Part shown: piece by piece, positions 6,393 through 46,869 of the stretch
Numbering within the stretch: the stretch's first letter is position 1
Layout of the letters: every line of letters starts with the position of its first letter
Origin: Lytechinus pictus
Lineage: Eukaryota
Direction: 5' to 3'
NCBI RefSeq assembly: GCF_037042905.1
Contig: NC_087250.1
Coordinates: forward strand, 16,618,001-16,682,000
DNA length: 64,000 nucleotides
Position numbers and translations under genes: made by a program
Notes under the pieces: generated by a model
The model's input: the letters and a program-made list of their open reading frames with translations, nothing else
Databases searched by the model: none
Told to the model about the DNA's origin: nothing

Positions 6393-7972
6393 ATATGATT
6401 AAAAAAGAAGTAAACATTTCTTCCCCTTTGTTTTGTCAATCTGACCCAAAACATATATACAATTTAGAAAAGAGATAGAGAGAAGAAGAAGTTCCACCAC
6501 CAAGAATAAACTTAGACAAGGGGGGGGGGGGGAAGGGAAAGGAAAAGATGGAGTAAATGTGATATTATTTTTATTATCTATCGCAAAATTAGCTTTTCCT
6601 ATAGAAAGAGGGGGACAAATTTTGTTCACTCGCTCGCTTCAATCGCTTTTTTCTTTTTTTTTGACAGAAATTTTGCTTTGTATGCCATGTTTGGCCCCTC
6701 AAAGTTTCTGGCTCATCATGCCATTGACATAACCCATTTGGATATGACAAAATTGAAGACTGTGTTCAAGTTTACCAAATCTTTTCAGAATATCATTAAG
6801 ACTTAAAACATTCTTGTTGGCCAAAGAAAATAATACAAGGAAAATCCTAATGGAATAGAAATCAACCTTGTTATCGTTCCTTAGAGTTAGCTATGTTTAA
6901 AGTATGAAAATTGTTGTCAAAATTGCAGTCAGATGTAAAAATTATTCTTGTAATCAAAGCACTATTATCTTGATCATGACCATTATTATTTACTGTCATT
7001 ATCATCATATGATTACAACATATTACCAATACATAATGCTATTTTTCATAACTGATGTATTCTTTGTTTGAATTTCTTGATAATGGTGACAATTACAATT
7101 GATGACACTGCTAGTACACTTACTACTGCTGCTGCTACTGTTACTGGTGATTGGTAGTATTGACCATTAGTGTTATTAAATATATTTAAAAAAAAAACAA
7201 TTGAAACATTTATAATTATGCCTTGAAATTTCAATGCTGAAAATCCTCAAGGCCAAGGCTTTGAAAAAGTAGGCATTACGGCGCCTTAAGGCCAAGGCCG
7301 AGCATCAAGGCACTACAACACTGATTAGTACTAGGCATTAATTAGACAGGTCCAGATTTGAGGTAAAGTTAATGCGCTAGCCTAAGCTAGCCCTACCCTA
7401 GCACATGTCTTGCCATTAATGGCAGCTAGTTTATTAAGTGTTTAAGAATTGGATATATATATAAGCCTATCTAAGCCTATAAGACCTATGTATCTATGTA
7501 AGGGTACCGGTAATTTGACGATGCTAATTCATTCTGAGCAACGTGAATGCATACGATCGGCACTGGTGGAGGCAAAGTCCAAGCGCATGCGTACTCTCAA
7601 GCCGAAGACGCAAGTAATGAATATTCATATGTTGGTCCAGAACTCGGTGGGAAAAATAAGTAACCCCGAGTGCTAACAGCTGACTGTTTTACAACTTGGG
7701 GAGTGATACATTTTTATAATAGGGGTGATCAAACTCACTGGAGGGACTTTAATTCACTTATAACAAAGAAATGTTAACTACAGTACTCATGTTGAATGCT
7801 CTGATGAAAATTATATGAGTTTTACATTCATTTGAACGAGAGGACAAGATTATATACATCCAGTGCATTATGCGTGAATCATACTACCATTGAGACCCCT
7901 GGCCGGCCGCGAATATTTAGGCAGAAATCTTTCATAATGCTTAAGTTAAACCACGGGATAGCATATCCCCTC

Positions 7973-8594
7973 TGTAGCGGCATGAATATAATTGGGTATA
8001 TTTGCCATTATTATGTACTGTTTACATGCATGTATCTTGTATACAGAGTCAGTGGAAAAAGAAAGTAAGAAATGTCAATGCAAGATTGTACACAGCGCAT
8101 TGCTTATTGTGCTCCTTGATTCCAAGAAGTCCAGGAGAAGATGAGTCATGTGGGTGAAGCATCACCCAAAGTATAGAACAAAGAAAGTAAGATTCAGAAG
8201 TTGCAAAGATTCAGAAGAAGATAGTCAAGAAATTATATTTATTCCTATAAATTGTGAAATTCTCCAGGATTGCAAACAGTTGCGAACCGCTCAATTACCG
8301 CTCAATCGCTCAATCGTCGCTCAATTGCCGTGCAATTGTTGAAGTACAGGTTGTTGACAGTTGATGCTGGTTAAAGGTTTCTTCGCTGGTCGTTGGTTAT
8401 GTCGACCTAGAAACTTCATTACAAGGCCGTATTTGATGTCAAGTTGTTGATTTATGTGTCGTCATTATTACGGAAGAAGTTGAAGAAGGAATAAACAGAC
8501 AAGTAACTGTAAAGCCGCTGTTTGAGTCTTCAATTAGCGTGTTCGAACTAAGCAATTAAGAATTTCCACGTGTAGTTTAAGAAAGGCAGCTACA
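7973..8594 (+). repeat. 5' LTR of BEL/Pao element
   Basis: Direct repeat of 14403-15024, with only about 3 substitutions seen by eye. TG...CA ends, TATAAA at 8246, AATAAA at 8490. Confidence 0.97.
8246..8287 (+). promoter_or_regulatory. LTR core promoter: TATA box (8246-8252) and initiator CAGTT (8277-8281)
   Basis: TATAAAT lies 31-32 nt upstream of a CAGTT Inr-like motif, the canonical Pol II spacing. Confidence 0.65.
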
Positions 8595-8599
8595 CGACA

Positions 8600-8610
8600 G
8601 TTCGCAACTG
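8600..8610 (+). other. Putative self-priming primer-binding site
   Basis: GTTCGCAACTG is the exact reverse complement of CAGTTGCGAAC (8277-8287). No TGG-starting tRNA PBS follows the LTR. Confidence 0.65.
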
Positions 8611-8614
8611 CATT

Positions 8615-11600
8615 ATGGATCCCTCAAATAAACCAAATTCAGAAGCCCTTGCTGGAGTTGGACCTGGAGCTGGAGACGACGAGGATGATGTAAAGTCTAC
8701 CACATCTCGGGGGAGCGCCATGTCCAGAGTGTCTTGTGTAAGCGATACATCAAGCCTGAAACTAAGAGCAGCGAGGGTGAAGGAGGAGCTGGTGAATAAG
8801 AAAAGGGAGCAGTTCTTACAGGAACAAAGACTAAGACGAGAACAGTTTAAATTACAACAGGAACAATTTGAACTGAATGAAAGAATAGAACTTCTCAAGA
8901 TCGACCATGACAAGGAAAATGCCAAGGTTGAAGCCACCATGTGGCAAGAACAAGTAAATGAAGAAAGGGCAGAAGCAGGATTCCGCCCTTACCTAACAAG
9001 GACTTGGACAATGTACAAATTACAGAAAGGTGGTTCTCCACCCAGGGAGAATCAAATCATCAGGGTAATGTACCAAATGTTCAAAAGGATAATGTATATG
9101 TTAAAGGTAATGAACATGTAAGTACTGGTGTAGTAGGTGAAGGTACTACAACAATTCATAAGCCGGGTAATGAAGGAGTAGGGTTAAGCAGGGGATACAA
9201 TGGTAATCACCAAGTTAATAGCCAAGCACAAGAACAGAAACCCTTCATACCCAATCCATTTCAGACCCCAGTTAATAACATGTATAATCATAATATGATG
9301 GCAATGGCTCTAAGTTTGCCAAAGCCAGACATGCCAACTTTCTCAGGCAATCCGATTGATTATTGGAATTTTGTGAATAGTTTTGAAGTTAATATTGCTG
9401 ACAGAATTCATGACAGTAGGTTAAAATTGTCTTACTTAATTCAGTTTACCTCAGACAAGGCCAGAGAGGCCATAGAAAATTGTGTATTATTAGATCCCGA
9501 TACAGGTTATTCCCGAGCTAGGATAATACTACAGGACCAGTTCGGACGGAACTACATAGTGGCTAGAGCTCACCTGGAGAAGGTCATCAATAGATCACCA
9601 CTCAGGGCCACGGACAGCCAAGGTCTGTGGGATCTAGCCAGAGACATGAGGAGGTGTCAGATGACAACTTCTCAGATGGGGTACTCGGCTGATATGAGTA
9701 CAACGGATACCCTACTGAAGATTCAACATCTTCTCCCAGTCCACATTCAATCCAAGTGGGCCAGCCGAGCACATTCACTGATGGAGCAATCAGTGATGCC
9801 CAACTTCTCCCATCTGACAGACTTCATCGAAGAGTCTGCTAAGGTGGCGAGTAATGTGTTCGGTAAGAGCGTAGGGCGTCCAGCCGTGCAAGACAAGAAG
9901 GCATCTGCGGGGAAGCCTAGGCCAAAGGTTTCGACCTTTAATACTACAACAAGCAAGTCTGAGAAACCTAAGGAATCGAGCTCATGCCCATGCTGCTCAG
10001 AGAAGCATGAGCTTGATAAGTGCCGCAAATTTAAAGGTCAGTCAGTAGATGAAAGGTTTGCCTTTGTCAAGTCTAAGGGGCTATGTTTCAATTGCCTCAA
10101 AGGGTCGCACATGGCAAAGGGCTGTACAGCTACCCCTAAGTGCAGCAAGGATGGGTGCAAGAAAAGACACCACACCCTTCTTCACATGGAGTGGTCCACC
10201 AAGGGCAAAGATAAAGGGCAAGAAACAGGTAAGCAAACTGGGGCCGGGCAAGGATCTGACTTAGATAACCAGGCCGACACTAATGCTGTTGGTGGTCAGA
10301 AAGAGGTTTGTCTCCGAGTTTTACCTGTCAATGTTAGAGGCAATGGCAGGGAGGTGACAACATGGGCTTTGCTGGACCATGGCAGCGATGTTTCCCTCTG
10401 CGAACAGCGTCTTGCAGATGACCTCGGCATCCAAGGTAAGGAGACAAACTTCCGACTGACCACGGTGAACAACACTAATACCCAAAGGGGAGGACAGGAG
10501 GTTAGTTTCTCCATTCAAGGAATTAAGGACAGGGATGTAATTGATATGCCCAGGGTGTGGACGGTAGAATCACTACCAACAACCCATAGAAGTATACCAA
10601 GGCAACAGGACGTAGATAGATGGTCCCATCTGAAGGGAATAGAGCTTCCAACAGCTGCCAAGAAGGATATCACCTTGCTCATAGGGAGTGACACCCCAGA
10701 GGCCTTCTGGGTCCAGGAAGAAAGGAGGGGAAAGAAGAAAGAACCATATGCTATCCGTTCTCCACTGGGATGGACAGTCATGGGCCCCACCGGACGCAGA
10801 AGGAAAGGAGCATTTGAGGTGAACAACATCTCAATGGATGACCATTTGCAAGAGCAAGTCCAGAGATTCTGGAAACTGGACTATGCTCCTGGTGATGAGA
10901 GTGAAAGATTAGGTGACTCGGTAGAAGACAGGAAGGCTCGTGCCATGATGGAAGACACAATCCGTCTTATGGATGGCCATTATGAGATGGGTTTACCTTG
11001 GCGTCAATTCCCTCCGTCTCTACCAAACAACCACAAGATGGCAGAGTCACGTTTACGATCTCTAAAGAGAAGACTGGAGAAGGATGACAGCCTTCACCAG
11101 AAGTACACAGAAACTATGACAAATTATTTGTCGAAGGGATTTGCAAGGGAGGTGGACGAGGACCCTCAAGAGGAGGGCTCTATCTGGTATCTACCTCACC
11201 ACCCAGTGACTCATCCCTTCAAGCCGGAAAAGGTGCGTGTAGTATTTGACTGTGCTGCCAAATACCAAGGAATCTCCCTTAACAGCCAGTTATTGAGTGG
11301 ACCGGATTACACCAATAAGCTTGTTGGTGTGCTTCTTCGCTTCAGACAAGAGGAAATAGCACTGGTGGCAGATGTGGAGGGTATGTTCCACCAAGTGAGG
11401 GTCACACCCACCCACACTGATGCGCTCAGATTCTTGTGGTGGGAGAACGGTAACACAGACACGACGCCTAAGACGTACAAGATGCAAGTGCATCTGTTTG
11501 GAGCGACTTCGTCTCCAAGCTGTGCAGGCTTTGCACTCCAAAGGACTGAGGAAGACAACAGGCAGGACTTTGATCCAGAAGTTTGTCAGATAGTCAAGGA

Positions 11601-14169
11601 CAATTTCTATGTCGATGACTGCCTGAAGTCTGTTCGCTCTACAGAGGAAGCGATAAGGCTCATTCCTCAGTTATGCAGCCTACTAAGAAAAGGAGGATTC
11701 AGATTAACAAAGTGGGTCAGCAATGACAAGGAAGTGTTGGAAACAGTCCCTCCTACAGAAAGGGCTGCATCGGTAGTTGATCTAGATTTGGATCATCTTC
11801 CAATAGAGAGAACACTTGGAGTCTTATGGAACATGGACTCTGACATGTTTAGCTTCAAGGTTTCTCCCAAGAACGTACCAGCAACAAGAAGGGGTATACT
11901 GTCCGCCACAAGCTCCTTGTATGATCCACTTGGATTTATGGCACCTTTCACAGTAAATGCAAAGCTTCTTTTGCAGGATCTTTGCGCCCAAGGTCTTGGC
12001 TGGGACGAGAAGATCAAGGACCAGGACTTGCAACGCTGGCAAGCCTGGCTGGCTGAGTTACCAGAATTAACCTCAGTACACAACCCCAGATGTTTCAAGC
12101 CATCTGACTTCAAGGACCCTGTCTATATGATCTCCATGTGTTCTGTGATGCGTCAGAAAGAGCATATGCAGCATGTGCCTATCTACGGATAGAGGATTCT
12201 GGTCGCACCCACAGTGCACTTGTGATGGGAAAGACAAAACTTTGTCCTCTGAAGAAGATGACAGTTCCCAGATTGGAGCTATCAGCAGCAGTACTAGCGG
12301 TAAAGCTGGGTCGAACCATCATGGAAGAACTCAGGCTACCAGTGAGGAGCGTCACATACTGGACTGACTCTACCTCAGTGCTGCTGTACATAAGGAATAC
12401 CAGCAGGAGATTCCGTACATTTGTTGCAAACAGAGTAGCTGTCATTCAAGAAAAGAGTGACACTTCACAGTGGCGCCACGTTGATACCAAGAGCAATCCA
12501 GCAGATGATGGTTCAAGAGGATTGCATGCAGGACAACTATCAAGATGGATCCAAGGACCAAACTTCCTTCTAAAGCAAGAAGAAGACTGGCCGGAAGCAT
12601 TCCTAACCCCGACTGACCAGAGAGTATTGCCCGCTCAGGACCTCAAGGATGATCCTGAGATGAAGGGGACTAATGCCATATCAATCAAGCCTGAAGATAG
12701 CATTGGTAATCTGATCAGTCGCTATTCAACCTGGAATAGATTAAAGAGAGGAGTAGCTTGGATCCTTCGCTTCAAGGCACACTTGATAGCCCGCACAAAG
12801 AAAAGTACATCTCAGAAGACTACAGATTTGACACCTTCCGAGTTGTCGGAAGCTGAGCTGGAAATAGTGAAGTACATTCAGAAGGATGCCTTTCCAGCTG
12901 AGTTTGAGAAGAACAAGAAGTCAAGGGTTGAACAGTCCTCCATGAAGAAATTGAACCCTACCCTAGTTGATGATGTCCTGAGGGTAGGAGGGAGACTGGA
13001 CAGATCACCTATTGACTTTGATGCCAAACACCGCATGATATTGCCAAGCAACCATCATGTGACCATACTGCTCATTGAGCACCACCATCATGAAGTTGGT
13101 CACTCTGGTGCAGGCATGACATGGACGGCACTAAGGTCGAAATATTGGATCCTGAAGGGGGTTCCACTGTTCGACGGATCATAGGGAAATGCATTCAATG
13201 TAGGAAGAGGAATGCACCAAGAGGAAGGCAAATGATGGCTGACTTGCCGAAAGAAAGAGTGACACCTGGCAGGCCACCATTTACCTTCACCGGAGTCGAC
13301 TACTTCGGGCCATTCAGTGTTAAGCAAGGACGGAGCCAGCCAAAGAGGTATGGCTGTATATTCACTTTTTGACAACTAGGGCTGTACATCTGGAGATAGC
13401 CAACTCCTTGGATACAGATTCATTCATTAACGCTCTTAGAAGATTTGTAAATCGCAGGGGGCTACCTGAGAAAATCTTTAGCGACAATGGCACAAACTTC
13501 AGAGCAGGACATAAAGAACTAAAGCAGAGCCTAGCAGAGCTCAACTCAACAAAGGTGGGTCGCTTTCTAACTCAGCGAGGGATTGAATGGGCGTTTAATC
13601 CTCCGGGTGCGAGCCACATGGGTGGTGTTTGGGAAAGAGTAATCCGGTCAGTTAGGAAGATATTGGGAAATCTTCTCAAGCTTCAGACTGTAACCGACGA
13701 AACTCTAAGCACACTCATGTCTGAAGTAGAAGCAATCCTAAATGCTAGACCGTTGACACCCTTAAGCGCGGATCCTAAAGACGAGGAACCGCTAACTCCG
13801 AACCATCTTCTTCTCATGAGAAGAAATCAGTCACTTTCACCAGGGGTATTTGATAAGAGTGATTGTTATACTCGAAGAAGATGGAAACAAACTCAATATC
13901 TGGCCGGACAGTTCAGGCGTTGGACAAAGGAATACCTTCCCTTGCTCCAAGAACGCCAAAGGTGGCTTAAACCACAAAGAAACTTCCAGACTGACGACCT
14001 TGTACTCATAGCTGATGACACTGCTCCTCGTGGGCACTGGCCACTAGGAAGAGTGACTATGACCTACCCAGACAGACATGGACTAGTTAGACAAGTTGAA
14101 GTTAGGGTAGGATCTAAATACTATAAACGACCAATTTCTAAATTATGTCTCTTAGAGAGCAACGATTAG
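8615..14169 (+). CDS. BEL/Pao gag-pol polyprotein, split by four -1 frameshifts in this sequence (ORFs 8615-9121, 9004-12192, 12138-13184, 13121-13372, 13369-14169)
   Basis: Gag [13 protein letters not shown]. Knuckles [42 protein letters not shown]. Protease [15 protein letters not shown]. RNase [12 protein letters not shown]. Integrase HHEVGH...CIQC, GVDYFGP, SDNGTNF, GGVWE. Confidence 0.93.
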
Positions 14170-14402
14170 GCTACTTTGACATATGACCGACATAAGACTT
14201 GTAGGGACCACACCCTCTTTATTATTGTTACATTAATGATTGTTGTAAGATTGATTTGATGTATTCTTAATCTCATTGTTATTTTCATTACTATGTTTAT
14301 GTTTATATCGTTAAGTATGGTATATTGGTTAATGATGCCGCTTTACATGTTTACGGTTTAATGAAATGAGTAACTGGTGGTTGCCTCATTTGGGGTCGGG
14401 TA

Positions 14403-15024
14403 TGTAGCGGCATGAATATAATTGGGTATATTTGCCATTATTATGTACTGTTTACATGCATGTATCTTGTATACAGAGTCAGTGGAAAAAGAAAGTAAAA
14501 AATGTCAATGCAAGATTGTACACAGCGCATTGCTTATTGTGCTCCTTGATTCCAAGAAGTCCAGGAGAAGATGAGTCATGTGGGTGAAGCATCACCCAAA
14601 GTATAGAACAAAGAAAGTAAGATTCAGAAGTTGCAAAGATTCAGAAGATGATAGTCAAGAAATTATATTTATTCCTATAAATTGTGAAATTCTCCAGGAT
14701 TGCAAACAGTTGCGAACCGCTCAATTACCGCTCAATCGCTCAATCGTCGCTCAATTGTCGTGCAATTGTTGAAGTACAGGTTGTTGACAGTTGATGCTGG
14801 TTAAAGGTTTCTTCGCTGGTCGTTGGTTATGTCGACCTAGAAACTTCATTACAAGGCCGTATTTGATGTCAAGTTGTTGATTTATGTGTCGTCATTATTA
14901 CGGAAGAAGTTGAAGAAGGAATAAACAGACAAGTAACTGTAAAGCCGCTGTTTGAGTCTTCAATTAGCGTGTTCGAACTAAGCAATTAAGAATTTCCACG
15001 TGTAGTTTAAGAAAGGCAGCTACA
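14403..15024 (+). repeat. 3' LTR of BEL/Pao element
   Basis: Direct repeat of 7973-8594. Preceded by the G-rich tract GGGGTCGGG (PPT-like, 14392-14400) and followed by the TSD CCCTC. Confidence 0.97.
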
Positions 15025-15801
15025 CCCTCCTTCCCCCTTCTCATCACTTAAGTATGAATTTTGTTATGAATTGAATTGACGCGTTTGAGATGTAAATAAT
15101 TATTATCTTTTGTTTTATGTTTGTTTATGTATACATATACTGTATTCAATTTATGTTGCCCTGTATTACGTTCGTTTAGAACTGGTAACCTGGGCCCATT
15201 ATTGTAATTGTTTCCCTTTTTATGAATAAAAGGTGATTTATAAACAAATACATTCTTGCCAATTAAGCAAACTTGTGACCCAATTATTAGCTGTTATTAC
15301 CAATTTGGACATATTTTAACTAGTTTTGTAGACAGTATGTTGCCAAGTGATGATTAAAAATTTTGCCTTTTTTGCCCAACTTTTTCAAGAGTGTACCTTC
15401 TTAGGTCACCCAAAATTTAAACATCACTTTATTAACGTCGACCAAAATGTATAGAGGCCACCATGGACCAATACCAGTATAGGCTTTATAGACTCATCGA
15501 CTGTTACTGATTATTCTAATAATTTTGTTGAGATCTAATTGATGCTCATTTAAAAGTATCACATGAAATGGTCAGAATATTGAGTCTTGTCGAACCACGA
15601 ATAAGTTTGGCAGGGGAGTGCTGTCATTACACATCAAAAATTTCTGATAGATAGGGTCACATTATCTTTCCAAGAGACATTAGAGTTTGATCGACCATAT
15701 GAAGGAATAGTTTGGTGAGAAAGAACTACCAGGAGAACTATTTGCATTCTTTATTTTAATGTGTATTTTCCCTGCACTGATTCCTTTCGGGTGGCTCTGA
15801 C

Positions 15802-27789: not shown

Positions 27790-30700
27790 TATGGTGGCCC
27801 TGAAGGGACATCGCAAATAGACCAAATCGCGAATATTCACGACGGAATTGGCGACGAAATTCACGACATCGTGAATTTTGTCGCCAATTTCGTCGCGAAT
27901 TATTCACGACGTCGTGAATTTCGTCGCCAATTTCGTCGTGAATTTGTTTTGCTTGCCTGGGCGGTATGCGGGTTGAAACCAATTCGTCTGCTGCTATTCC
28001 TCCACTCACAACAGGGTCTACATTCATTTAGTCTAATGCAATTATATCTATTAAATTTTCGCCTAACAACCATATGGTCCAATAACCATTTGGTCCAGTC
28101 ATCACTTCGTCTAATCACCAGTTGGTTTATGACCATTTCGTCTCATAACTAGTTGGTCTAATATCAATTTTATTTTCCTTAATTTCGCCCAACTAACAAT
28201 TAGTTCAATTAGACCAAATGGTATATGGAATAAATGGCAATTGGACCAACTTGGTTATTTGACGAAATGGCAGTTAGACTAAGTGGATAGTGGACGAACT
28301 GATGGTAGACCAAAATGATAGCAGACGAGTTGGCATTAGACCAATTGAAAATAAACCATTGAAACGACAGAACGATGTCCACTGCTATCCATATGCATAG
28401 GTGGATCCAGGGGGGATGGGGCCGAGGGGCCCGCCCCCCCCCCCCCCCTATTGGCGGAGCAAAAAAAATAAAAAAGGGAAGAAAGAGATTTTAAAAAAGG
28501 AGGGAAAAGAGAGGAGAAAAAAAAAAGAGGAGGAAGACGAGTGAAAAAAATAAGATGAGGGGAAGACATGGAAAAAATAGAATCTTTCATGTCACTATAT
28601 AAAATTTTCGCTCGCGCTTCGCGCTCGCATTGCCTGTTAGGTGTTCCAGGGGCGAATCCAGCCTTCGCCAATAGGGGGGGGCCGGAATTATTTTTTCAGC
28701 CATATTTTCCCCGATCGGCCGCTCGAAGATGATTTTTGGTTTCTGTGAAGGGGTAGTCTTCTTAGCTTTATTATTATAAATCAACATAAATATATAATAT
28801 CATAATCCTTATTTATATAATGTGAGCGCGAAGCGCGAGCTAAATTTTTTTGGAAATCTTATGTATTTTTTTCCTAAAATTTGAACATTCTGGGCAATGT
28901 TTGTTTTCCTAAAAAAGATGTGTATGCAAATAAATAATTACTACGAACGCGAAGCGCGAGCAGAAATGAACTGGTGGAAAAGGTATCTGTTAAAAACTGC
29001 ATGCAGTTAGTAATGAAGACGTTATATATTTTAAAAATCAAATAATGCGAGCCCGATGCGCGAGCTTAATTTTTTGACATTTTTACCTAAAGAATGGAAA
29101 TTCTAAGGACTTTTTGTAACTTAAACAGAATAGGTATGTAATAAACAATTGATGTGAGCGCGAAACGGGAGCTGAAAATTTTTGACATTTCTACATAAAG
29201 AATGAAAATTTTAATCAATTTTTGTAATCGTGAACAGGATAGCTATATAACTAAACAATTGATGCGAGCGCGAAGTGCGAGCGGAAAATCGAGATTTAGA
29301 CCTAAATACGGGTCACTCTATTCATGTTTTGTAAATTTTGAAAAGAATGAGTAAGTCCTACATTAATGATGCCAGCACAAAGCGCGAGCAGAAAATTGTT
29401 TATATTGTGATCTGAAACTGGATAATGATTTGAATAGAGAACAAGTTGAATATCTGAATAAACATGCGCGCACGTGTTTCATATTTAGACCTAGAATCTA
29501 GGCATTCTAAATACATCTTTTATCATGAAAATCAAAGCGAGCGCGAAGCGCGAGCTTAAACTATTTGATATTCCGATCTGAAAAAAAGAGTCAATTTCAG
29601 CTCTATATTTCAAGCACTTTGTAAGAAAATTGTAAGGTGGATATAGATTGAACAGAGCTGATTTTTTCATTATAATTACTTTGAGTTTTGACATAGGACC
29701 GGTACATCCTTAGGACATGAAGGACATGTCATCATATGAAAATGATGACTGTCTTCCTATTTCTCTTGCTAAGCGCGAGATGAAACAAAGGGGACAATTC
29801 AATTATTAAATTAATATCTTATTCATTAATGCCTAATGAAGGCGCGAAGTTTGATGATATTATAGCCTGAAAACTTGAAATTTCAAGCACTTTCAGTTTG
29901 TAATTATAAATGGGATGCATCAGTTAATATATTTTTAACAATTAATGCGAGCGCAAATTGCGAGCCTAAATCTTTGTATACATTTTCATGAAAAGGGATT
30001 GTATAATCAATATTGAGACATACAATCAAAATGCGAGCGTGCAGCGCTAGCTGATGCGTTTTGACAATCAGACCTGAAAAGGTATATTTTGAAAACTTTA
30101 TGGAATACACGAAAATAATAGGTACCTGATAAATCGAAATTTTCGAGCGCACAGCGCGAGCGGAAAATGTTAATATTCAGACCATAAAACTGTCATATTT
30201 ACATAGCACTTTTTAAAAATCAATTTGTAAATCACGCAAAATAATGAAAGTTTGAATTTCGAGATGAATGGAAATATGTTTTGTATATTGACTTCCAAAC
30301 TTGATATTCAAACTTTATATTGAACGAGATATGAAAATCACCTAACAGGCAATGTAAGCGCGAAGCGCGAGCGAAAATTTTATATAGTGACATGAAAGAT
30401 TCTTTTTATTTTCATGTCTTCCCCTCATCTTACCATTCACTCGTCTCCTCCTCTTCTTTTTTTCTACTCTCTTTTCCCTCCTTTTTTAAATTTCTTTCTT
30501 CCCTTTTTTCCTTTTTTTTTGCTCCGCCAATAGGGGGGGGGGGCGGGCCCCTCGGCCCCCTCCCCCCTGGATCCGCCTATGCATATGGATAGCAGTGGAC
30601 ATCGTTCTGTCGTTTCAATGGTTTATTTTCAATTAGTCTAATGCCAACTCGTCTGCTATCATTTTGGTCTACCATTAGTTTGTCCACTATCCACATGGTC

Positions 30701-31254
30701 TAACTGCCATTTCGTCTAATAACCAAGTTGGTCCAATTGCCATTTATTTCATATGCCATTTGGTCTAATTGAACTAAGTGTTAATTGGGCGAAATTAATG
30801 AAAATAAAATTGATATTAGACCAACTAGTTATGAGACGAAATGGTTATAAACGAACTACTGGTGATTATAGACGAAGTGATGACTGGACCAAATGGTTAT
30901 TGGACCATATGGTTGTTAGGCGAAAAGTTAATGGACAGAATTGCATTAGACTAAATGAATGTAGACCCTGTTGTGAGTGGAGGAATTAGCAGCAGACGAA
31001 TTGGTTCAACCTGCATATACTACCCAGGCAAGCAAAACAAATTCACGACGAAATTGGCTACGAAATTCACGACGTCGTGAATTTCGTCGTGAATAATTCG
31101 CGATGAAATTCACGATGTCGTGAATTTCGTCGTGAATATTCAAATTGACGACGAAATTCACGACGATGTTGGCGACGTCGTGAATTTCGTCGCCAATTTC
31201 GTCGTGAATATTCGCGATTTGGTCTATTTGCGATGTCCCTTCAGGGCCACCATA
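27790..31254. mobile_element. Foldback-like composite element with ~860-910-bp inverted arms (27790-28644 / 30340-31254)
   Basis: TA|TGGTGGCCCTGAAGGGACATCGCAAATAGACC at left and the exact reverse complement at right, with a possible TA TSD. Arms contain AAATTCACGACG arrays and nested MITE sequence. Confidence 0.8.
28647..30582. mobile_element. Intact copy of the GCGCGAAGCGCGAGC-motif MITE family
   Basis: Termini CAGGGGCGAATCC / GGATCCGCCTATG. Reverse-colinear with 812-2773. Confidence 0.7.
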
Positions 31255-40595: not shown

Positions 40596-43500
40596 TAGTC
40601 CAGGCAAAATAACTGATTTTGGGGGTCAACCGCAAACAAATTGCAATAGAATTTTTTTTACCACAATGCATTTCCCTGAAGTCCCCAAAATGACATACTA
40701 AAAGTCCAGAAAAATCCCAGTAGTGGAAAGACGTCTAATTTGCATAAATCCAAAATGGCCGCCAAATTTTCAGAAAATTTGAATTTTCATACATAGATTT
40801 TGGTATGAACATTTAATTGCCACAAAATCAGTGTCATATGAAAGAGAAATAAATTTCCTATAATTTGGTACTATTTATAGGGGATAAATAGATAATTTGG
40901 CTGAGATTTTTTAGTAGAAAACTGCATTTTTGTCATTTTTTCCCAAAAGTTTAAAATTGTGAAAATACATGATTTTACATAAATCCAAGAAAAATTGAAC
41001 AATTACCTTGAAATGTTCCAGAAAACTTTGTTGATATACTATTAATATGTGGATGCAATTTTAAATTTGTGTCATTCTTTTTAACAAATTTAGAAGGTAT
41101 CAAAGTTGACAACTCAAATTTCACAAATGTCGCGTTTTGTATGCATTTTCGTAGACTAATATGTATAACGTATCTACTGTATACCGTACAGTAGTTAAAA
41201 ATTGTATGCATTTATCTACGCTTTTTAAACACCTAGTTAAAATTAGGCTTTTCTCTATCAGCTACATAAAAAGGGCTGGCACATTGACGCCTACCCCTCT
41301 CAGGGGGCTGTCAAAGTCACGCCCTCTGGCTATATCATGTTGTATGGTGTGTATCAAAATTAACGCAACCACATTTCATTTCCAATTTGTGAAAAATTTG
41401 TTGGCTTTATAGTCCAGGAAAAATTACTGATTTAGGGGGTCAACCAAAAACAAATTAAAACAAAATTTTTACCACAATCCATTTCTTTGAAGTCCCCAAA
41501 ATTTCATACTAAAAGTGTTTCTGAAATCCATGTAGTGGAAAGACGTCCTATTTGCATAAATCCAAAATGGCGGCCATCGTAAGAATTTTTAGTAATAATT
41601 TCTTATAATAGTACAAACTCTTGTCTGATCATCGCACTTAAAAAATATGATTAAAGCATTTACCTTTCACCAGTGTTATATCTTACCATAGGCTTCGTAT
41701 CAAAATTAGTATGCAAGTCAGATTTGGCCTCTGCTGACCTCTAGAGGTCAATGACCTTAAGGTCAACGACCTCAAATATCAGAAAATTGATGTTTTGCAT
41801 CATTAGCTCATGATAAATGTAGTAATAATGCAAACAAAATTATTATTAAATATTGACTTTCAAGGTAACCTGATATTCTAGAAAGAATTTGTGTATCATA
41901 AATGTTGACCTTTGACCCTGGAGCACTGGCTAAGGTCAGTAAACTTAACATATCACAATAATGATACTTAGAATACTTATGATAAACAGGTCTCTAGTGA
42001 AAAAATGCAATACAATTTATTTCAGCACAATGCATTTCCATGAAGTCTCCAAAATTACATACTAAAAGTCCAAAAAAATCCATGTAGTGGAAAGATATCA
42101 AGTTTGCATAAATCAAAAATGGAGGCCATTGTGAGAATTTTCAATTTTTACAAATAATAGTAAAAACACTGGTCTGATCATAGCACTTAAAAAAAATAAC
42201 GATAACAGCATTTAACTTTCACAAGTGTTATATCTTACCGTAGGCTTCATTTAAAAATTCCAATGCAATTTAGATTTGACCTCTCCTGACCTCTTGAGGA
42301 CAATGACCTTATAAGGGCAATGACTTAAAAATATTGATGTTTTGCATCCAGAGTTCTTGATTAGCATAATTATGTTATATCAAATTATGTTTGAAATTTG
42401 AGGATCTCTAAACAAATTTGACCTTAAAATGTAAAAGTATTGGTACTCTGCATCACTGGTTGATATGATAAATTGATGTTTTAAGGTAATTGACCTGTCA
42501 CTTTCCTCAGCAGTCAAATGTTGAGATCTGCAATCTTTACCCAAATGATCTGTTAAAAATAACAAAACTATATCATCTGTATAGCTGTAACTCTAGGGAC
42601 ACGTTTCATAAAGAGTAACTTTGCCATTATGGCAACTACCATAGCATTAGGATTCAGCAGCCAATCAAAATCAAGGTTACCATGGTAGTTGCCATAATGG
42701 CAACGTTACAACACTTGTAACTCTTTATGAAACGGGCTCCAGGTCTTTTTTGGCTAGTACATTCTGACTGAGGTTAGAGCATTGGGAGGTTTTGAAATGA
42801 TATGTGAAATGCCTCAATTAATTTTTTTGCAATTATCATTTATGTATACATCCCGAGAGACTTGAAAGTTTTCCTATTTGGCTAGATAGTAACCTGGCGT
42901 ATTTGCTCTTTAGAAGGGAGATGCAACTTACCACGATGCTGGTTGGTACTGCACTTCTCTTCCCATAACTTGCACTTAGTCATAATGGTGACTGTCAGAG
43001 GTAGGACAGAATTAAAAATGTTTCCTAGATTTTAGCCTTTTTCAACTAGTTTGGCATCATAGATTTGATGGACGCTATATCTTCGCTGAGAGCTCTGTGG
43101 TATATAGCTACTGATCTGCGTATATCAGATGGGCAATACCTGACAGGACATACAGACTCTTCACATTTTCGGGCTTCAGATAGTTTGTGATAGTCCCACA
43201 AGGTTAGTGCTGTCTAAAAAGGAAGAAGTGTCCAAGACAGCACATGCATACTCTTGTAGCAGAGTATTGGTGGAGGGGTTTGTCAGTTCCGGAGAATGTT
43301 ATTATTATGGATCCTCACTTTCCCCCTTCACTCTTAATGTGACTGATCAAGGGTGACACCAAGATATATTGCATGGTCGCAGTGCTGGAATGGAATTCAA
43401 ACCATAGGTTGTTTTGAGTTTCCTCAAAGCCTGAGGATTATGGGGATGAAACAAGCTAACCTTGGTCTTTGGGTTTGAAGACTGGACTCAAGAAAGAACA

Positions 43501-46500
43501 CGACCCTGAGAGAGTCAATTCTTTTGAATTTACCTGCTGGTCTTCCTGTTGAGATCCATAAAGAGATGTCTGTTTTCTAGTACAAGTTTAATGAGTTTGG
43601 TCAAATGAATATTATCAATGATTTGTATAGTTGTACGAGTAGACCACAGTATCAGATGCAGCTGCTAATTCAACAAAATTTTCTTTACCCGTTAGTTAGT
43701 TACCGTATTAAGTCGGAAGTCCTCAGTGAACTGAGTCTGGTTGAGAACCTAGCCTGTATATTATTTCCAAAGTTAAAAACCAGCCTGGTTATGAATATGA
43801 TATGTTGTTCTATAATGGGAACATCTTTTTGTTTAGGATGAGAATTATGAGATGCTCAAGTAGCTTGTAGAGATATCAGAATAGGGCGATTGGCCTGTAG
43901 TTTTTAGGCATGCACATTTGGATCTTTCCCAGGTTTGAGGAATTACTTTAGCCTTCCTCAAAATTTCTGGGAGATGGGACTGTGTAGCACATTGTTAAAC
44001 AGACTGACAAGCCATTCTTAAGTTTGCAAGCTTAAGGTGTTCATATAATCATCTCGTCCTGTCTACATATCTTAAGGAAAAAGATAAGATGACGAAATCT
44101 CGGATCTCGTTATGTCTACATCCTGTGGGAGAGATGATCAGATGACAAGATCTGTGATCTCGTCATGTGTACATCTTTTAGAAGAGATGATCAGATGGCA
44201 AGATCTCAGATCTCGTCATATCTTCACCCTGTAAGAGAAATGATCAGATGGCAAGATCTGGGATCTCGTCATGTCTACATCTCTGAGGGAAAAGGATAAG
44301 ATGACAATTTCTAAGATCTGATCATCTCTCCCACACAATGTAAAAATGGGAAGATCCAAGGTCTTGCCATCTGATCATCTCTCACACAGGATGTAGACAT
44401 GACAAGATCTAAGATATTGTCATCTGATCCTTTTCCATAAGAGATGTAGACATGACGAGATGATGAAATGAACATCTGGCGGCAGATCAAAATGTTTCAT
44501 TTACTCAGAGGGGTGTCACCGAAGCGTGCTGTCTTTTCCTTCTTTGTTCCTTCAATTTCAATATCCAGGTGAAATCTCCATTGGACTGGTCACTTGGAAG
44601 ATATCCACTTTAGTGTAGCTTGTACTGGGTTGTTCTATTCAGCAGACGCTGGATAGTAAACTAGTTATGTTTAATATTCTAAGTACAATGACGATTGAAA
44701 GTTTTAGGGTTAAAGGTCACAACTTTTAATACTCGCCAATTTTTTCATGTATCAAGGGACCTTATAAGCTAAAATTACTAGTAACTTTTCTCACAATCTA
44801 ACAATGTGCAAAACGAATTATCATAATGCAAAACATAAATTTTTATGATATTCCGACGTCAATAATCCTTTAGGTCATTTCCTCTAGAGTTCAGCACAGG
44901 TCAAATCTGAATTGCATCCGATTTTTAAAATGAAACCTGTGATAGAATATAACAGTGATGAAAGTTTAATGCTTTAATCATATTCTTAGTGTTATGATCA
45001 GACCAGTGTTTGTACTACTACGATTAATCATTTTGGATCATTTTTATGCAAATTAGACGCTTTTCCACCACTTTGATTTTTTTGGACTTTTGGTATGTCA
45101 TTTTTGGAGACTTCATGGAGATGCCCTGTGTTGAAATAAATAGTATAACAATTTTTACACCTTGACGCCTGTTTATCATAAAACAGTGATGCTTAGCGTC
45201 AATATTCCAAAATGTTAAGGTCATTGACACTTTTTAGCTCTCCAGTGTTCAAAGTTCCGAAAGTTTATAACCCACCAAATTCTTTCTAAAATATCAGGAC
45301 ACCTCGGAAGTCAATATCAAATAATTTTGTTTTCATTATTACTATTTTTATCATTAGCTAATGATGCAAAACATCAATTTTTTAAAAAATATTTTGAGGT
45401 CATTGACCTTAATGTATTTGACCTCTACAGATCAGCGGAGGTCTAATCAGACTTGCATCCTATCTAATTTTGAAATGAAGCATAATATTATGGTAAGATA
45501 TAACAATGATGAAAGTTCAATGCTTCAATAATATTTTTTTAAAGTGCTTTGATCAGACCAGTGATTGTACTAATAATCATGAAAAGTTTTCATGATGGTC
45601 GCCATTTTGGATTTATACAAATAAGACGTCTTTCCACTACATGGATTTTTCTGGACTTTTAGTATGTCATTTTGGTGACTTCATCAGCGTTCATGGAAAT
45701 GCATCGTGCTCAAATTAATGGTAGTGCAATTTTTACACTAGACAACTTTTCATATATCAGAGATGCTACGTGTCAATATTATACATGTTAAGGTCATTGA
45801 CCTTTTCCAGCTCTCCAGGGTCAAAGGTCAAGATTTATAACCCACCAAATTCTTTCTAAAATATCAAGATACCTTGAAAGTCAATATTGAATCATTTTGT
45901 TTTCATTATAACCATATTTATTATGTACTAATGATGCAAAACATCAATTTTCTGATATTTAGAGGTCATTGACCATAATGTCATTGACCTCTAGAGGTCA
46001 GCGGAAATCAAATTTGACTTGCATCCTGATTTCAAAATGAAGCCTATGGTAAGATATAACACTGGTGAAAGTTTCATGCTTTTATAATATTTTTTGAAAG
46101 TGCTATGATCAGAACAATGTTTGTATTACTATCAATAAACATCAAAAATTCTCACGATAGCAGCCATTTTGGATTTATGCAAATTAGACACCTTTCCACT
46201 AAATTGAGTTTTCTGGACTTTTAGTATGTCATTTTGGTGACTTCATAGAAATGCATCGTGCTCAAATTAATTGTATTGCAATTTTTACACTCGAAGCCTG
46301 TTCATAAATCAGATATGCTATGTGTCAACATTCTAAAATGTTAAGGTCATTGACCTTTTCCAGCTCTCCAGGGTCAAAGGTCAAGACTTATAACCCACCA
46401 AATTCTTTCTAAGATATCAAGATACCTTGAAAGTCAATATTTAATCATTTTGTTTTCATTATAACCATATCTTTTATGTACTAAGGATGCAAAACATCAA

Positions 46501-46869
46501 TTTTCTGATATTTAGAGGTCATTGACCTTAAGTTCATTGACCTCTAGAGGTCAGCGGAGGTCAAATTCGACTTGCATCCTGATTTTAGAATGAAGCCTAA
46601 GGTAAGATATAACACTGGTGAAAGTTTCATGCTTTTATCATAATTTTTGAAAGTGCTATGATCAGAACAATGTTTGTATTACTATCAATGATCATCAAAA
46701 ATTCTTACGGTAGCCGCCATTTTGGATTTATGCAAATTAGACACCTTTCCACTAAATGGATTTTTCTGGACTTTTAGTATGTCATTTTGGGGACTTCATG
46801 GAAATGCATTGCGTTGAAAAAAATTATATTGCAATTTGTTTGCGGTCAAACCTTATTTTTCCTGGACTA
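40596..46869. mobile_element. Academ-like non-autonomous DNA transposon with long, tandemly repeated TIR units
   Basis: TTA|TAGTCCAGG ... CCTGGACTA|TTA, giving a 3-bp TSD and TAG..CTA termini. About 550-570-bp subterminal units, roughly 2 on the left and 4 inverted on the right. Superfamily call rests on termini and TSD only. Confidence 0.75.
44035..44477. repeat. Palindromic array/MITE of ~58-bp units (ATCTCGTCATGTCTACATC...GATCAGATGGCAAGATCT)
   Basis: About 5 direct units followed by about 3 inverted units. Ends AGGTGTTCAT / ATGAACATCT. Confidence 0.7.

Follow-up and report, generated by a model that had tools for sequence, protein, structure and literature searches.

How does a long terminal repeat (LTR) retrotransposon begin reverse transcription when the sequence following its 5΄ LTR offers no site for the 3΄ end of a transfer RNA (tRNA)? 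This question is raised by a 64,000-nucleotide (nt) stretch of the Lytechinus pictus genome (assembly GCF_037042905.1, contig NC_087250.1, positions 16,618,001 to 16,682,000 of the forward strand), hereafter referred to as the window, in which a complete LTR retrotransposon spans positions 7973–15024. A first-pass annotation of this DNA had suggested that the element is of the BEL/Pao type and that the beginning of its own transcript, instead of a tRNA, serves as the primer, as in the fission yeast element Tf1. Having compared this element with its other genomic copies and with related families, we consider it likely that a clade of BEL/Pao elements does prime reverse transcription with its own leader RNA in a Tf1-like manner, and that this primer is assembled by splicing. 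We observed complementarity between the leader and the presumed primer binding site (PBS), covariation of the two in five families, the boundaries of an intron within the leader, precise intron-less copies, and a spacer retained at free LTR ends.

The 5΄ LTR of the window element occupies positions 7973–8594 of the plus strand and is followed by a 5-nt spacer, CGACA (8595–8599), by the presumed PBS, GTTCGCAACTG (8600–8610), by CATT, and by the gag ATG at 8615. The presumed PBS is the exact reverse complement of CAGTTGCGAAC at positions 8277–8287, within the LTR, and every coordinate that the first-pass annotation had given for this match proved correct. The LTR segment opens with an initiator (Inr)-like CAGTT and its first base, as had also been noted, lies downstream of a putative TATA box, 31 nt from the first T of TATAAAT (8246–8252, plus strand). 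The absence of a TGG-type tRNA site after the 5΄ LTR was likewise confirmed: no such site starts at 8595–8600, and the first TGG is found at 8616–8618, within the context of the gag start codon. By our own arithmetic (approximately 15 starts after the LTR multiplied by 612 LTR positions), an exact 11-nt inverted match is expected by chance approximately 0.002 times.

We searched the genome (812 Mb) with the LTR as a query and obtained 40 matches, including 17 LTRs that were readable across the segment concerned. In 12 of these, an insert of ~975 nt is located exactly between the positions corresponding to 8282 and 8283. The insert starts with GTAAGT and ends with TTTATTCAG, and it displays the anatomy of a spliceosomal intron: GT...AG ends, a strong donor and a polypyrimidine acceptor in which the terminal CAG is preceded by a pyrimidine run. 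The layout encoded in intron-containing copies is accordingly CAGTTG/GTAAGT...CAG/CGAAC, where slashes denote exon boundaries. Because these copies carry an intron between 8282 and 8283, the 11-mer of the window is an exon–exon junction, CAGTTG/CGAAC. Its 5΄ half, CAGTTG (8277–8282, plus strand), is the end of exon 1 and pairs with 8605–8610; its 3΄ half, CGAAC (8283–8287, plus strand), is the start of exon 2 and pairs with 8600–8604. By alignment, the window copy is an intron-less derivative lacking exactly the intron, and, to judge from the copies compared, the occurrence of CAGTTGCGAAC requires ligation of the exons or descent from RNA in which they had been ligated. The intron of this family was thus defined by comparing copies with and without the insert, without reference to the PBS.

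The 12 intron-containing LTRs sit at nine loci, which comprise the LTR pairs C8:9136609 and 9144057, C3:13377182 and 13369797, and C34:320827 and 328240, together with C18:2385123, C7:6632856, C2:5125375, C3:74862629, C5:43840909 (the sequence of which is also found on C223) and C8:32127447. The five intron-less LTRs belong to three loci, namely the window element, an element at C7:7886181–7893172 and a solo LTR on C143. Intron status was identical in the two LTRs of all five elements in which both could be read. When the intron sequence itself was used as a genome query, 27 matches were obtained, all in LTRs of the window family; an introner-type mobile insertion was dropped as an explanation because the intron matches nothing outside these LTRs. 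Precise intron loss was found at the C6 and C143 loci. The intron-less LTRs of the family are 98.2–98.5% identical to one another, as against 97.6–98.4% identity to the intron-containing C8 and C3 copies; a single intron loss is not supported by these values, which hint at recurrent loss, the data being thin. Large insertions are nested within the intron at C8:32127447–32138565 (~9.5 kb) and at C5:43840909–43844145 (~1.6 kb). The latter locus is duplicated, with identical flanks, on C223, which may be an alternative haplotype contig.

If the junction serves as a primer, related elements are expected to present a PBS that follows their own junction. A query with the reverse transcriptase (RT) region yielded 90 genome matches from many BEL/Pao families, and the four nearest relatives were examined on their 5΄ side. 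We refer to the window family as W and to these relatives as C17 (C17:31231321; RT identity 66%; LTR 1741 bp, the pair being 99.9% identical), A (C7:8589342; 62%; LTR ~1541 bp, the pair being 99.9% identical), B (C5:35264392; 61%; LTR 627 bp) and C (C3:15609822; 58%; LTR 1444 bp); in B and C, the 3΄ LTR was confirmed by coordinates. Each relative carries a donor of the type GTRAGT, which is therefore found in all five families, directly behind a conserved motif resembling AAACARTTG (this reads CCAAAAGTTG in C17), and each carries a pyrimidine-rich acceptor, the introns of C17, A, B and C being 934, 806, 244 and 770 nt long, respectively. Dozens of genomic sites share 85–98% identity with a ~60-nt stretch of the family C intron (L096:985–1047), which is probably a piece of a small element present in many copies.

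In all five families, the ligated junction finds its exact reverse complement, over 10–13 nt, in a site of the same family located 3–7 nt past the 5΄ LTR. The junction CAGTTG/CGAAC of W is matched by GTTCGCAACTG behind the spacer CGACA, AGTTG/TAAAC of C17 by GTTTACAACT behind TCTCAAA, CAATTG/CAAAC of A by GTTTGCAATTG behind TAA, ACAGTTG/TTAAAC of B by GTTTAACAACTGT behind TTAA, and CAATTG/CGAAC of C by GTTCGCAATTG behind TAA. The match in C17 amounts to 14 of 15 positions when extended upstream. Every site starts with GTT and has an A just before it, and in every family the pairing ends past base 5 of exon 2 (base 6 in B), always with an unpaired C opposite an A. A TGG-type site after the LTR was found in none of the five families. 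Across positions –5 to +5 about the junction, 55 out of 55 cells are paired, and two-sided compensatory changes are found at three positions: position –4 is G–C in three families and A–T in two, position +1 is C–G in three and T–A in two, and position +2 is G–C, A–T or T–A. In addition, an intron-less LTR resembling those of families A and C (C2:22202262–22202663) reads CAATTG/CGAAC, exactly as predicted.

These results bear on several points raised by the first-pass annotation. It had considered the case of relatives that keep the PBS and lose the match to the leader; what we found is that the sites differ among the five families and that each matches its own leader. The proposal of self-priming is thus strengthened by covariation, while the simple copy of the Tf1 arrangement that had been envisaged does not hold in this family, the 11-mer being an exon–exon junction. 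A local hairpin, mentioned there as a caveat, can indeed form in the window family (CAGTT-CGC-AACTG); it is not conserved, however, because the same stem is impossible in two of the four relatives (A and C). The 5-nt gap between the LTR and the duplex had been counted as a weakness, and this objection no longer stands: a gap of 3–7 nt occurs in all families and would correspond to the portion trimmed at integration.

We analyzed the possibility that the match is a chance inverted repeat without function. A free scan, in which any GT...AG junction was allowed to match anything downstream, had no power and was rejected; it yielded an 11-mer in 31–68 of 100 shuffles, a result that would favor such an explanation. 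In the constrained version, the donor was fixed at the conserved motif, the target was limited to the first 25 nt past the LTR, and shuffling was applied to these 25 nt and to the LTR interior. Out of 5000 such shuffles per family, the observed length was reached in 4 for W (11 nt), 16 for C17, 14 for A, 0 for B and 6 for C. The acceptors were also ranked independently of the match between junction and PBS: among 18–68 AG sites, the one completing the match has the highest score as a polypyrimidine acceptor in four families and the second highest in the fifth. Since five families show the match at the same pair of fixed positions, and with compensatory changes, we give almost no credence to a chance repeat. 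Folding of the spliced leaders with ViennaRNA placed the whole duplex in the minimum-energy structure in all five families, with mean pair probabilities of 0.95–0.99; in W, all 11 pairs were formed (mean pair probability, 0.99).

A tRNA could act in two ways. As a primer at its 3΄ end, it was excluded by the sequence. Alternatively, an internal tRNA fragment might prime, the match to the LTR being incidental. In copia, the primer is the 5΄ half of a host tRNA ending in the anticodon stem; the present elements are like copia in having a PBS that begins with something other than TGG and a primer whose 3΄ end differs from CCA, and CAGTTGCGAAC could be interpreted as an anticodon arm with the loop TTGCGAA. 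To our knowledge, however, a tRNA with the corresponding anticodon GCG is not expected in animals. In contrast to copia, moreover, the site tracks the exon junction of the element itself, and five different sites are found in five families, each following its own junction. In a set of 46 distinct tRNA records, which is incomplete and consists of Lys records except for one Thr, no record has more than 6 nt in common with the complement of 8590–8625. Priming by a tRNA fragment is therefore very improbable.

ARAGORN detected no tRNA gene in the window. The genomic tRNA sample was taken by an Rfam search, in which 63 of ~73,000 candidates were scored, and led to a Lys gene array. This array is a dense tandem arrangement of tRNA-Lys genes (TTT, CTT) at C4:9700711–9735957, with a spacing of ~470–1400 nt over ~36 kb. 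The complement of 8600–8614, with up to two mismatches, gave 1608 genome matches compared with 542 for the control; the excess arises because a high-copy repeat (e.g. L037 and L040–L042; C1:11888024, C2:11097650) contains CTGCAGTTGCGAAC, which is complementary to 8600–8612 over 13 nt. This repeat was rejected as a tRNA primer: it is not a tRNA according to ARAGORN, and it runs on past GAAC, with no 3΄ end at that point. We take the match as chance, because, by our own arithmetic, a genome this large should contain ~24 matching 13-mers by chance.

If the leader primes at this site, the first base of minus-strand DNA should adjoin the duplex, and the free ends of integrated LTRs provide indirect information on this point. 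All six independent junctions between 5΄ LTR and leader in W read CGACA followed by GTTCGCAACTG. Among 11 independent right ends of LTRs that abut host DNA, three carry exactly CGACA, namely the 3΄ LTR of the C3:13369797 element, the LTR at C2:5125375 and the end at C8:32138565. None of these three displays a perfect target duplication; the C8 end is ambiguous, since it matches the left flank at four of five bases. A 5-bp duplication accompanies each of the remaining eight ends and matches at four of five bases in one case. The simplest reading is that linear complementary DNA (cDNA) ends in ...GCTACACGACA, that integrase usually trims it to the inner CA, and that three copies were joined untrimmed; the spacer at 8595–8599 would then represent the untrimmed end of linear cDNA. 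The retention of CGACA at free LTR ends therefore places the first minus-strand base at 8599, and 8600, the expected partner of the primer 3΄ end, is the exact end of the junction complement. These ends thus indicate, indirectly, that minus-strand DNA begins at the base next to the duplex, as in elements of the Tf1 type. The element at C3:13369797–13378831 has LTRs that are 100% identical, lacks a target-site duplication and keeps CGACA past its 3΄ LTR, and resembles a cDNA that was inserted with its end untrimmed.

According to the main competing explanation, the base pairing is genuine but is not that of a primer. The site could be an RNA splint or switch that keeps the two exon ends in contact or detects their ligation and in this way governs splicing, gag translation or packaging, with another, unrecognized primer in use. 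Indeed, in unspliced RNA the two halves of the site can pair with both exon ends (6 and 5 bp), and in W the site adjoins the gag ATG at a distance of 4 nt. However, this distance varies among the families, whereas the site stands at the place required of a PBS, 3–7 nt past the LTR, in all five, and no alternative candidate for the PBS was found there. In addition, CGACA at 3 of 11 free ends sets the first DNA base beside the duplex. We accordingly regard a splint or switch as unlikely, and self-priming by the spliced leader as the better account of the site.

We propose that self-priming would proceed as follows. Transcription would begin in the LTR near the Inr-like CAGTT, and in intron-containing master copies an intron of 244–975 nt would start just 5–7 nt downstream, or slightly more. 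Splicing of exon 1 (...CAGTTG) to exon 2 (CGAAC...) would create the complement of the 10–13-nt site, which would exist as the ligated junction only. The junction, at or near the 5΄ end of the RNA, would fold onto the PBS, and the ribonuclease H (RNase H) of the element would cut past base 5 of exon 2 (base 6 in one family); in the window, the cut is predicted after 8287 on the plus strand, where the pairing ends. The freed RNA 3΄ end would be extended, and minus-strand DNA would start at 8599. With the primer segment removed by this cut, strong-stop DNA would end at base 6 of exon 2 and would never copy the junction. After transfer to the R region at the 3΄ end of the template, strong-stop DNA would copy the first bases of exon 2 and then whatever sits upstream. 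If the 3΄ R is unspliced, the intron would be regained in both progeny LTRs; if it is spliced, both progeny LTRs would be intron-less, as in the window copy, with the primer sequence ready-made. The same products would be expected if a spliced RNA primed an unspliced partner in trans. Here, we infer the transcription start, the splicing in RNA, the RNase H cut, the use of the primer in cis or in trans and the inheritance of the intron.

A further step, which we put forward tentatively, is that the spliceosome may gate reverse transcription. The primer would be absent from both the DNA and the primary transcript and would be made by removal of a cap-proximal LTR intron behind an exon of ~5–7 nt, while the intron would be kept unspliced in the 3΄ R for inheritance. 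The two ends of the RNA would then be in opposite splicing states, and intron-less copies would be escapees that prime without splicing.

The primer need not be the capped 5΄ end of the transcript. Self-priming might instead involve RNA that starts further upstream; alternatively, the primer might be supplied by the spliced junction of the 3΄ R or by a distinct spliced RNA that primes unspliced genomic RNA in trans. A first exon of 5–6 nt is hard to splice, and longer first exons are suggested by the 45-nt TATA spacing of family A and by the extended pairing in C17; moreover, an unspliced template would easily explain why most genomic copies keep the intron. On the other hand, a TATA-like box lies ~31–32 nt before the first paired base in W and B, and in W, A, B and C the pairing ends at most 1–2 nt upstream of the Inr-like CA, as if the RNA started there. 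Such variants of self-priming are improbable in our estimation, and we retain the 5΄-terminal junction as the preferred primer.

Several observations weigh against the proposed mechanism in the form given above. A transcription start at CAGTT would give a first exon of 5–6 nt in W and 6–7 nt in B, which is extremely short. Short RNAs containing a 5΄ splice site can take part in splicing in vitro. The TATA-like box of family A lies 45 nt before the donor, compared with 36 nt; the TATA spacing fits W and B and fits A less well. Because of this spacing and the extended pairing in C17, the rule that the duplex begins at nucleotide 1 may fail, and in some families the RNA may start upstream of the duplex. 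Three ribosomal RNA-depleted RNA runs from the same species, approximately 6 in 100 of each of which was analyzed, and one contig set were aligned to the intron-containing LTR (L013:1401–3310). The runs gave 17, 18 and 26 reads on this LTR, and no splice joints or clustered starts were seen among them, the reads being too few for a test. The contig set behaves like DNA and includes one contig with an intron-less junction, and we give neither the runs nor the contig set any weight for or against.

Two intron-less junctions, both of which abolish the complementarity, also count against this mechanism. In both LTRs of the element at C7:7886181–7893172, the sequence reads CAAACAGT/CGCTCAAT, i.e. 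CAGT/CGCTC, and lacks 7 nt (TGCGAAC) compared with the window. Its leader has no match to its intact PBS, and the sequence resumes one base past the predicted RNase H cut; the pol region of this element is broken as well. An intron-less LTR of family C17 (C12:28636597–28637383) reads CCAAAG/TAAACC, ~4 nt short of the predicted CCAAAAGTTG/TAAACC. Some intron losses may therefore be template jumps and not products of splicing. Furthermore, all five families come from one genome, and families B and C were first spotted by the unconstrained complementarity scan itself; for this reason, the weight of these two families rests on the donor motif, the acceptor rank and the coordinate-confirmed LTR ends.

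Pfam domains detected on the frames of 8962–14166 were Peptidase_A17 (2e-17, 1e-26), RVT_1, DUF5641 and rve. Since Pao peptidase, RT, DUF5641 and integrase are all present in pol, the element is assigned to BEL/Pao, in agreement with the first-pass annotation; the TG...CA ends of its LTRs and its short target duplication are those of BEL/Pao, and Pao-type domains take the place of the Ty3/gypsy chromovirus pol that characterizes the Tf1/sushi clade. The window element is a young, frameshifted BEL/Pao LTR retrotransposon.

The first-pass annotation had also stated that BEL/Pao elements are usually described as primed by tRNA. The profile of Belpaoviridae by the virus taxonomy committee (ICTV) agrees, giving, in the part used here, an 18-nt PBS that complements tRNA-Arg or tRNA-Gly and a host tRNA as the primer of replication (PMC8742986). 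The present elements resemble Belpaoviridae in gene content, LTR structure and 5-bp target duplication. They differ from that part of the profile in that a tRNA PBS is absent in five families, a difference that concerns the mode of priming and not the gene-based class. In a more distant relative (L108, bases 1–400 of a metagenome contig; RT identity 30%), a TATA box is present, and the LTR ends in ...ACAACA and is followed 2 nt later by a TGG-starting site, which by its sequence is an ordinary tRNA-type arrangement. The tRNA-free state is therefore specific to the clade. None of the 12 metagenome loci related to the element reaches far enough upstream to include both splice sites; four were read, and L098, L104 and L105 were not interpretable.

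The closest parallel to the proposed mechanism is found in Tf1 and Tf2 of Schizosaccharomyces pombe and in Tf1/sushi elements generally. As in those elements, a tRNA site is lacking, and a complement of the element's own leader, 11 nt long, is located just after the 5΄ LTR. In the section of the literature on Tf1 drawn on here, RNase H is described as freeing the primer by a cut between bases 11 and 12 (PMC7175516), and the duplex of the present families (10–13 nt) has the same length as the 11 nt given there. Unlike Tf1/sushi, which belongs to Ty3/gypsy, the present clade belongs to another superfamily with a Pao peptidase. Unlike in Tf1, the complement is split by an intron of 244–975 nt in master copies and would be present only after splicing; a spacer of 3–7 nt separates the LTR end from the PBS, and the start site and the cut are predictions.

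Self-priming has also been predicted from complementarity between LTR and PBS for plant Tcn1 chromoviruses and for TAR, a Ty1/copia group; because it was found outside the Tf1 clade, it appears, according to the pages of that study used here, to have arisen or spread more than once (PMC6317226). Those elements are plant or fungal members of Ty3/gypsy and Ty1/copia, and the same pages mention no intron in the primer sequence. Half-tRNA priming of copia-type elements is described there as well (PMC6317226). Introns within LTRs have a precedent in maize, where canonical spliced introns located wholly inside LTRs are supported by long-read RNA evidence, and the authors regarded this, to their knowledge, as the first evidence that introns located in LTRs bear on the biology of the elements (bioRxiv 10.64898/2026.05.08.723830). 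The excerpt of that preprint to which we refer concerns plant elements and makes no link to priming (bioRxiv 10.64898/2026.05.08.723830).

Because Pfam places the element in Pao and not in Ty3/gypsy, an origin independent of Tf1 is plausible, and self-priming may have evolved independently in this clade. Tf1-like self-priming as such is already known; its occurrence in BEL/Pao and the dependence of the primer on splicing are probably new. Our literature search found no precedent for BEL/Pao self-priming or for a splice-built primer; subscription journals lay mostly outside this search, and a precedent is possible. If our interpretation is correct, the existence of a self-primed clade within BEL/Pao would show this mode of priming to have arisen again, in animals, and, with a primer that spans an exon junction, the onset of reverse transcription would be coupled to host splicing. 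The arrangement also offers a concrete answer as to how an LTR intron could survive replication through RNA. In addition, annotation tools that seek only tRNA sites or contiguous matches between LTR and PBS would miss the PBS of intron-containing members.

With respect to its remaining features, the window element is flanked by a 5-bp target-site duplication, CCCTC, with identical copies at 7968–7972 (left) and 15025–15029 (right) on the plus strand, and duplications of 5 bp were also found at seven further insertions of the family, of which one matches at four of the five bases. The 5΄ LTR, which is of the intron-less form (622 bp, TGTAGC...GCTACA), and the 3΄ LTR (14403–15024, plus strand), which is intron-less too, differ at 3 of 622 bases. 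Variable tandem repeats of the type CGCTCAAT are found at the start of exon 2 (8288–8330, plus strand), and the LTRs differ in length because the number of these repeats varies among copies. A similar duplicated unit is located at the start of exon 2 in family C17. A putative polyadenylation signal, AATAAA, is located at 8490–8495 (plus strand); if it is used, R would take in the position of the intron.

The internal gag-pol region (8615–14169, plus strand), delimited by open reading frames and profile matches, is split in the window copy into several open frames, at 8576–9121, 8962–12192, 12108–13184, 13094–13372 and 13324–14169. A polypurine-rich tract, GGGGTCGGGTA (14392–14402, plus strand), lies directly 5΄ of the 3΄ LTR, and the near-identical GGGGCCGGGTA precedes the 3΄ LTRs of other copies. 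Other repeats in the window are located at 44823–46837, at 41448–42348, at 27852–28643 with 30339–31132, and at 803–2035 with 29160–30389; they comprise a tandem or dispersed repeat with a period of ~540 nt (76–82% identical) and two inverted pairs (92% and 82%).

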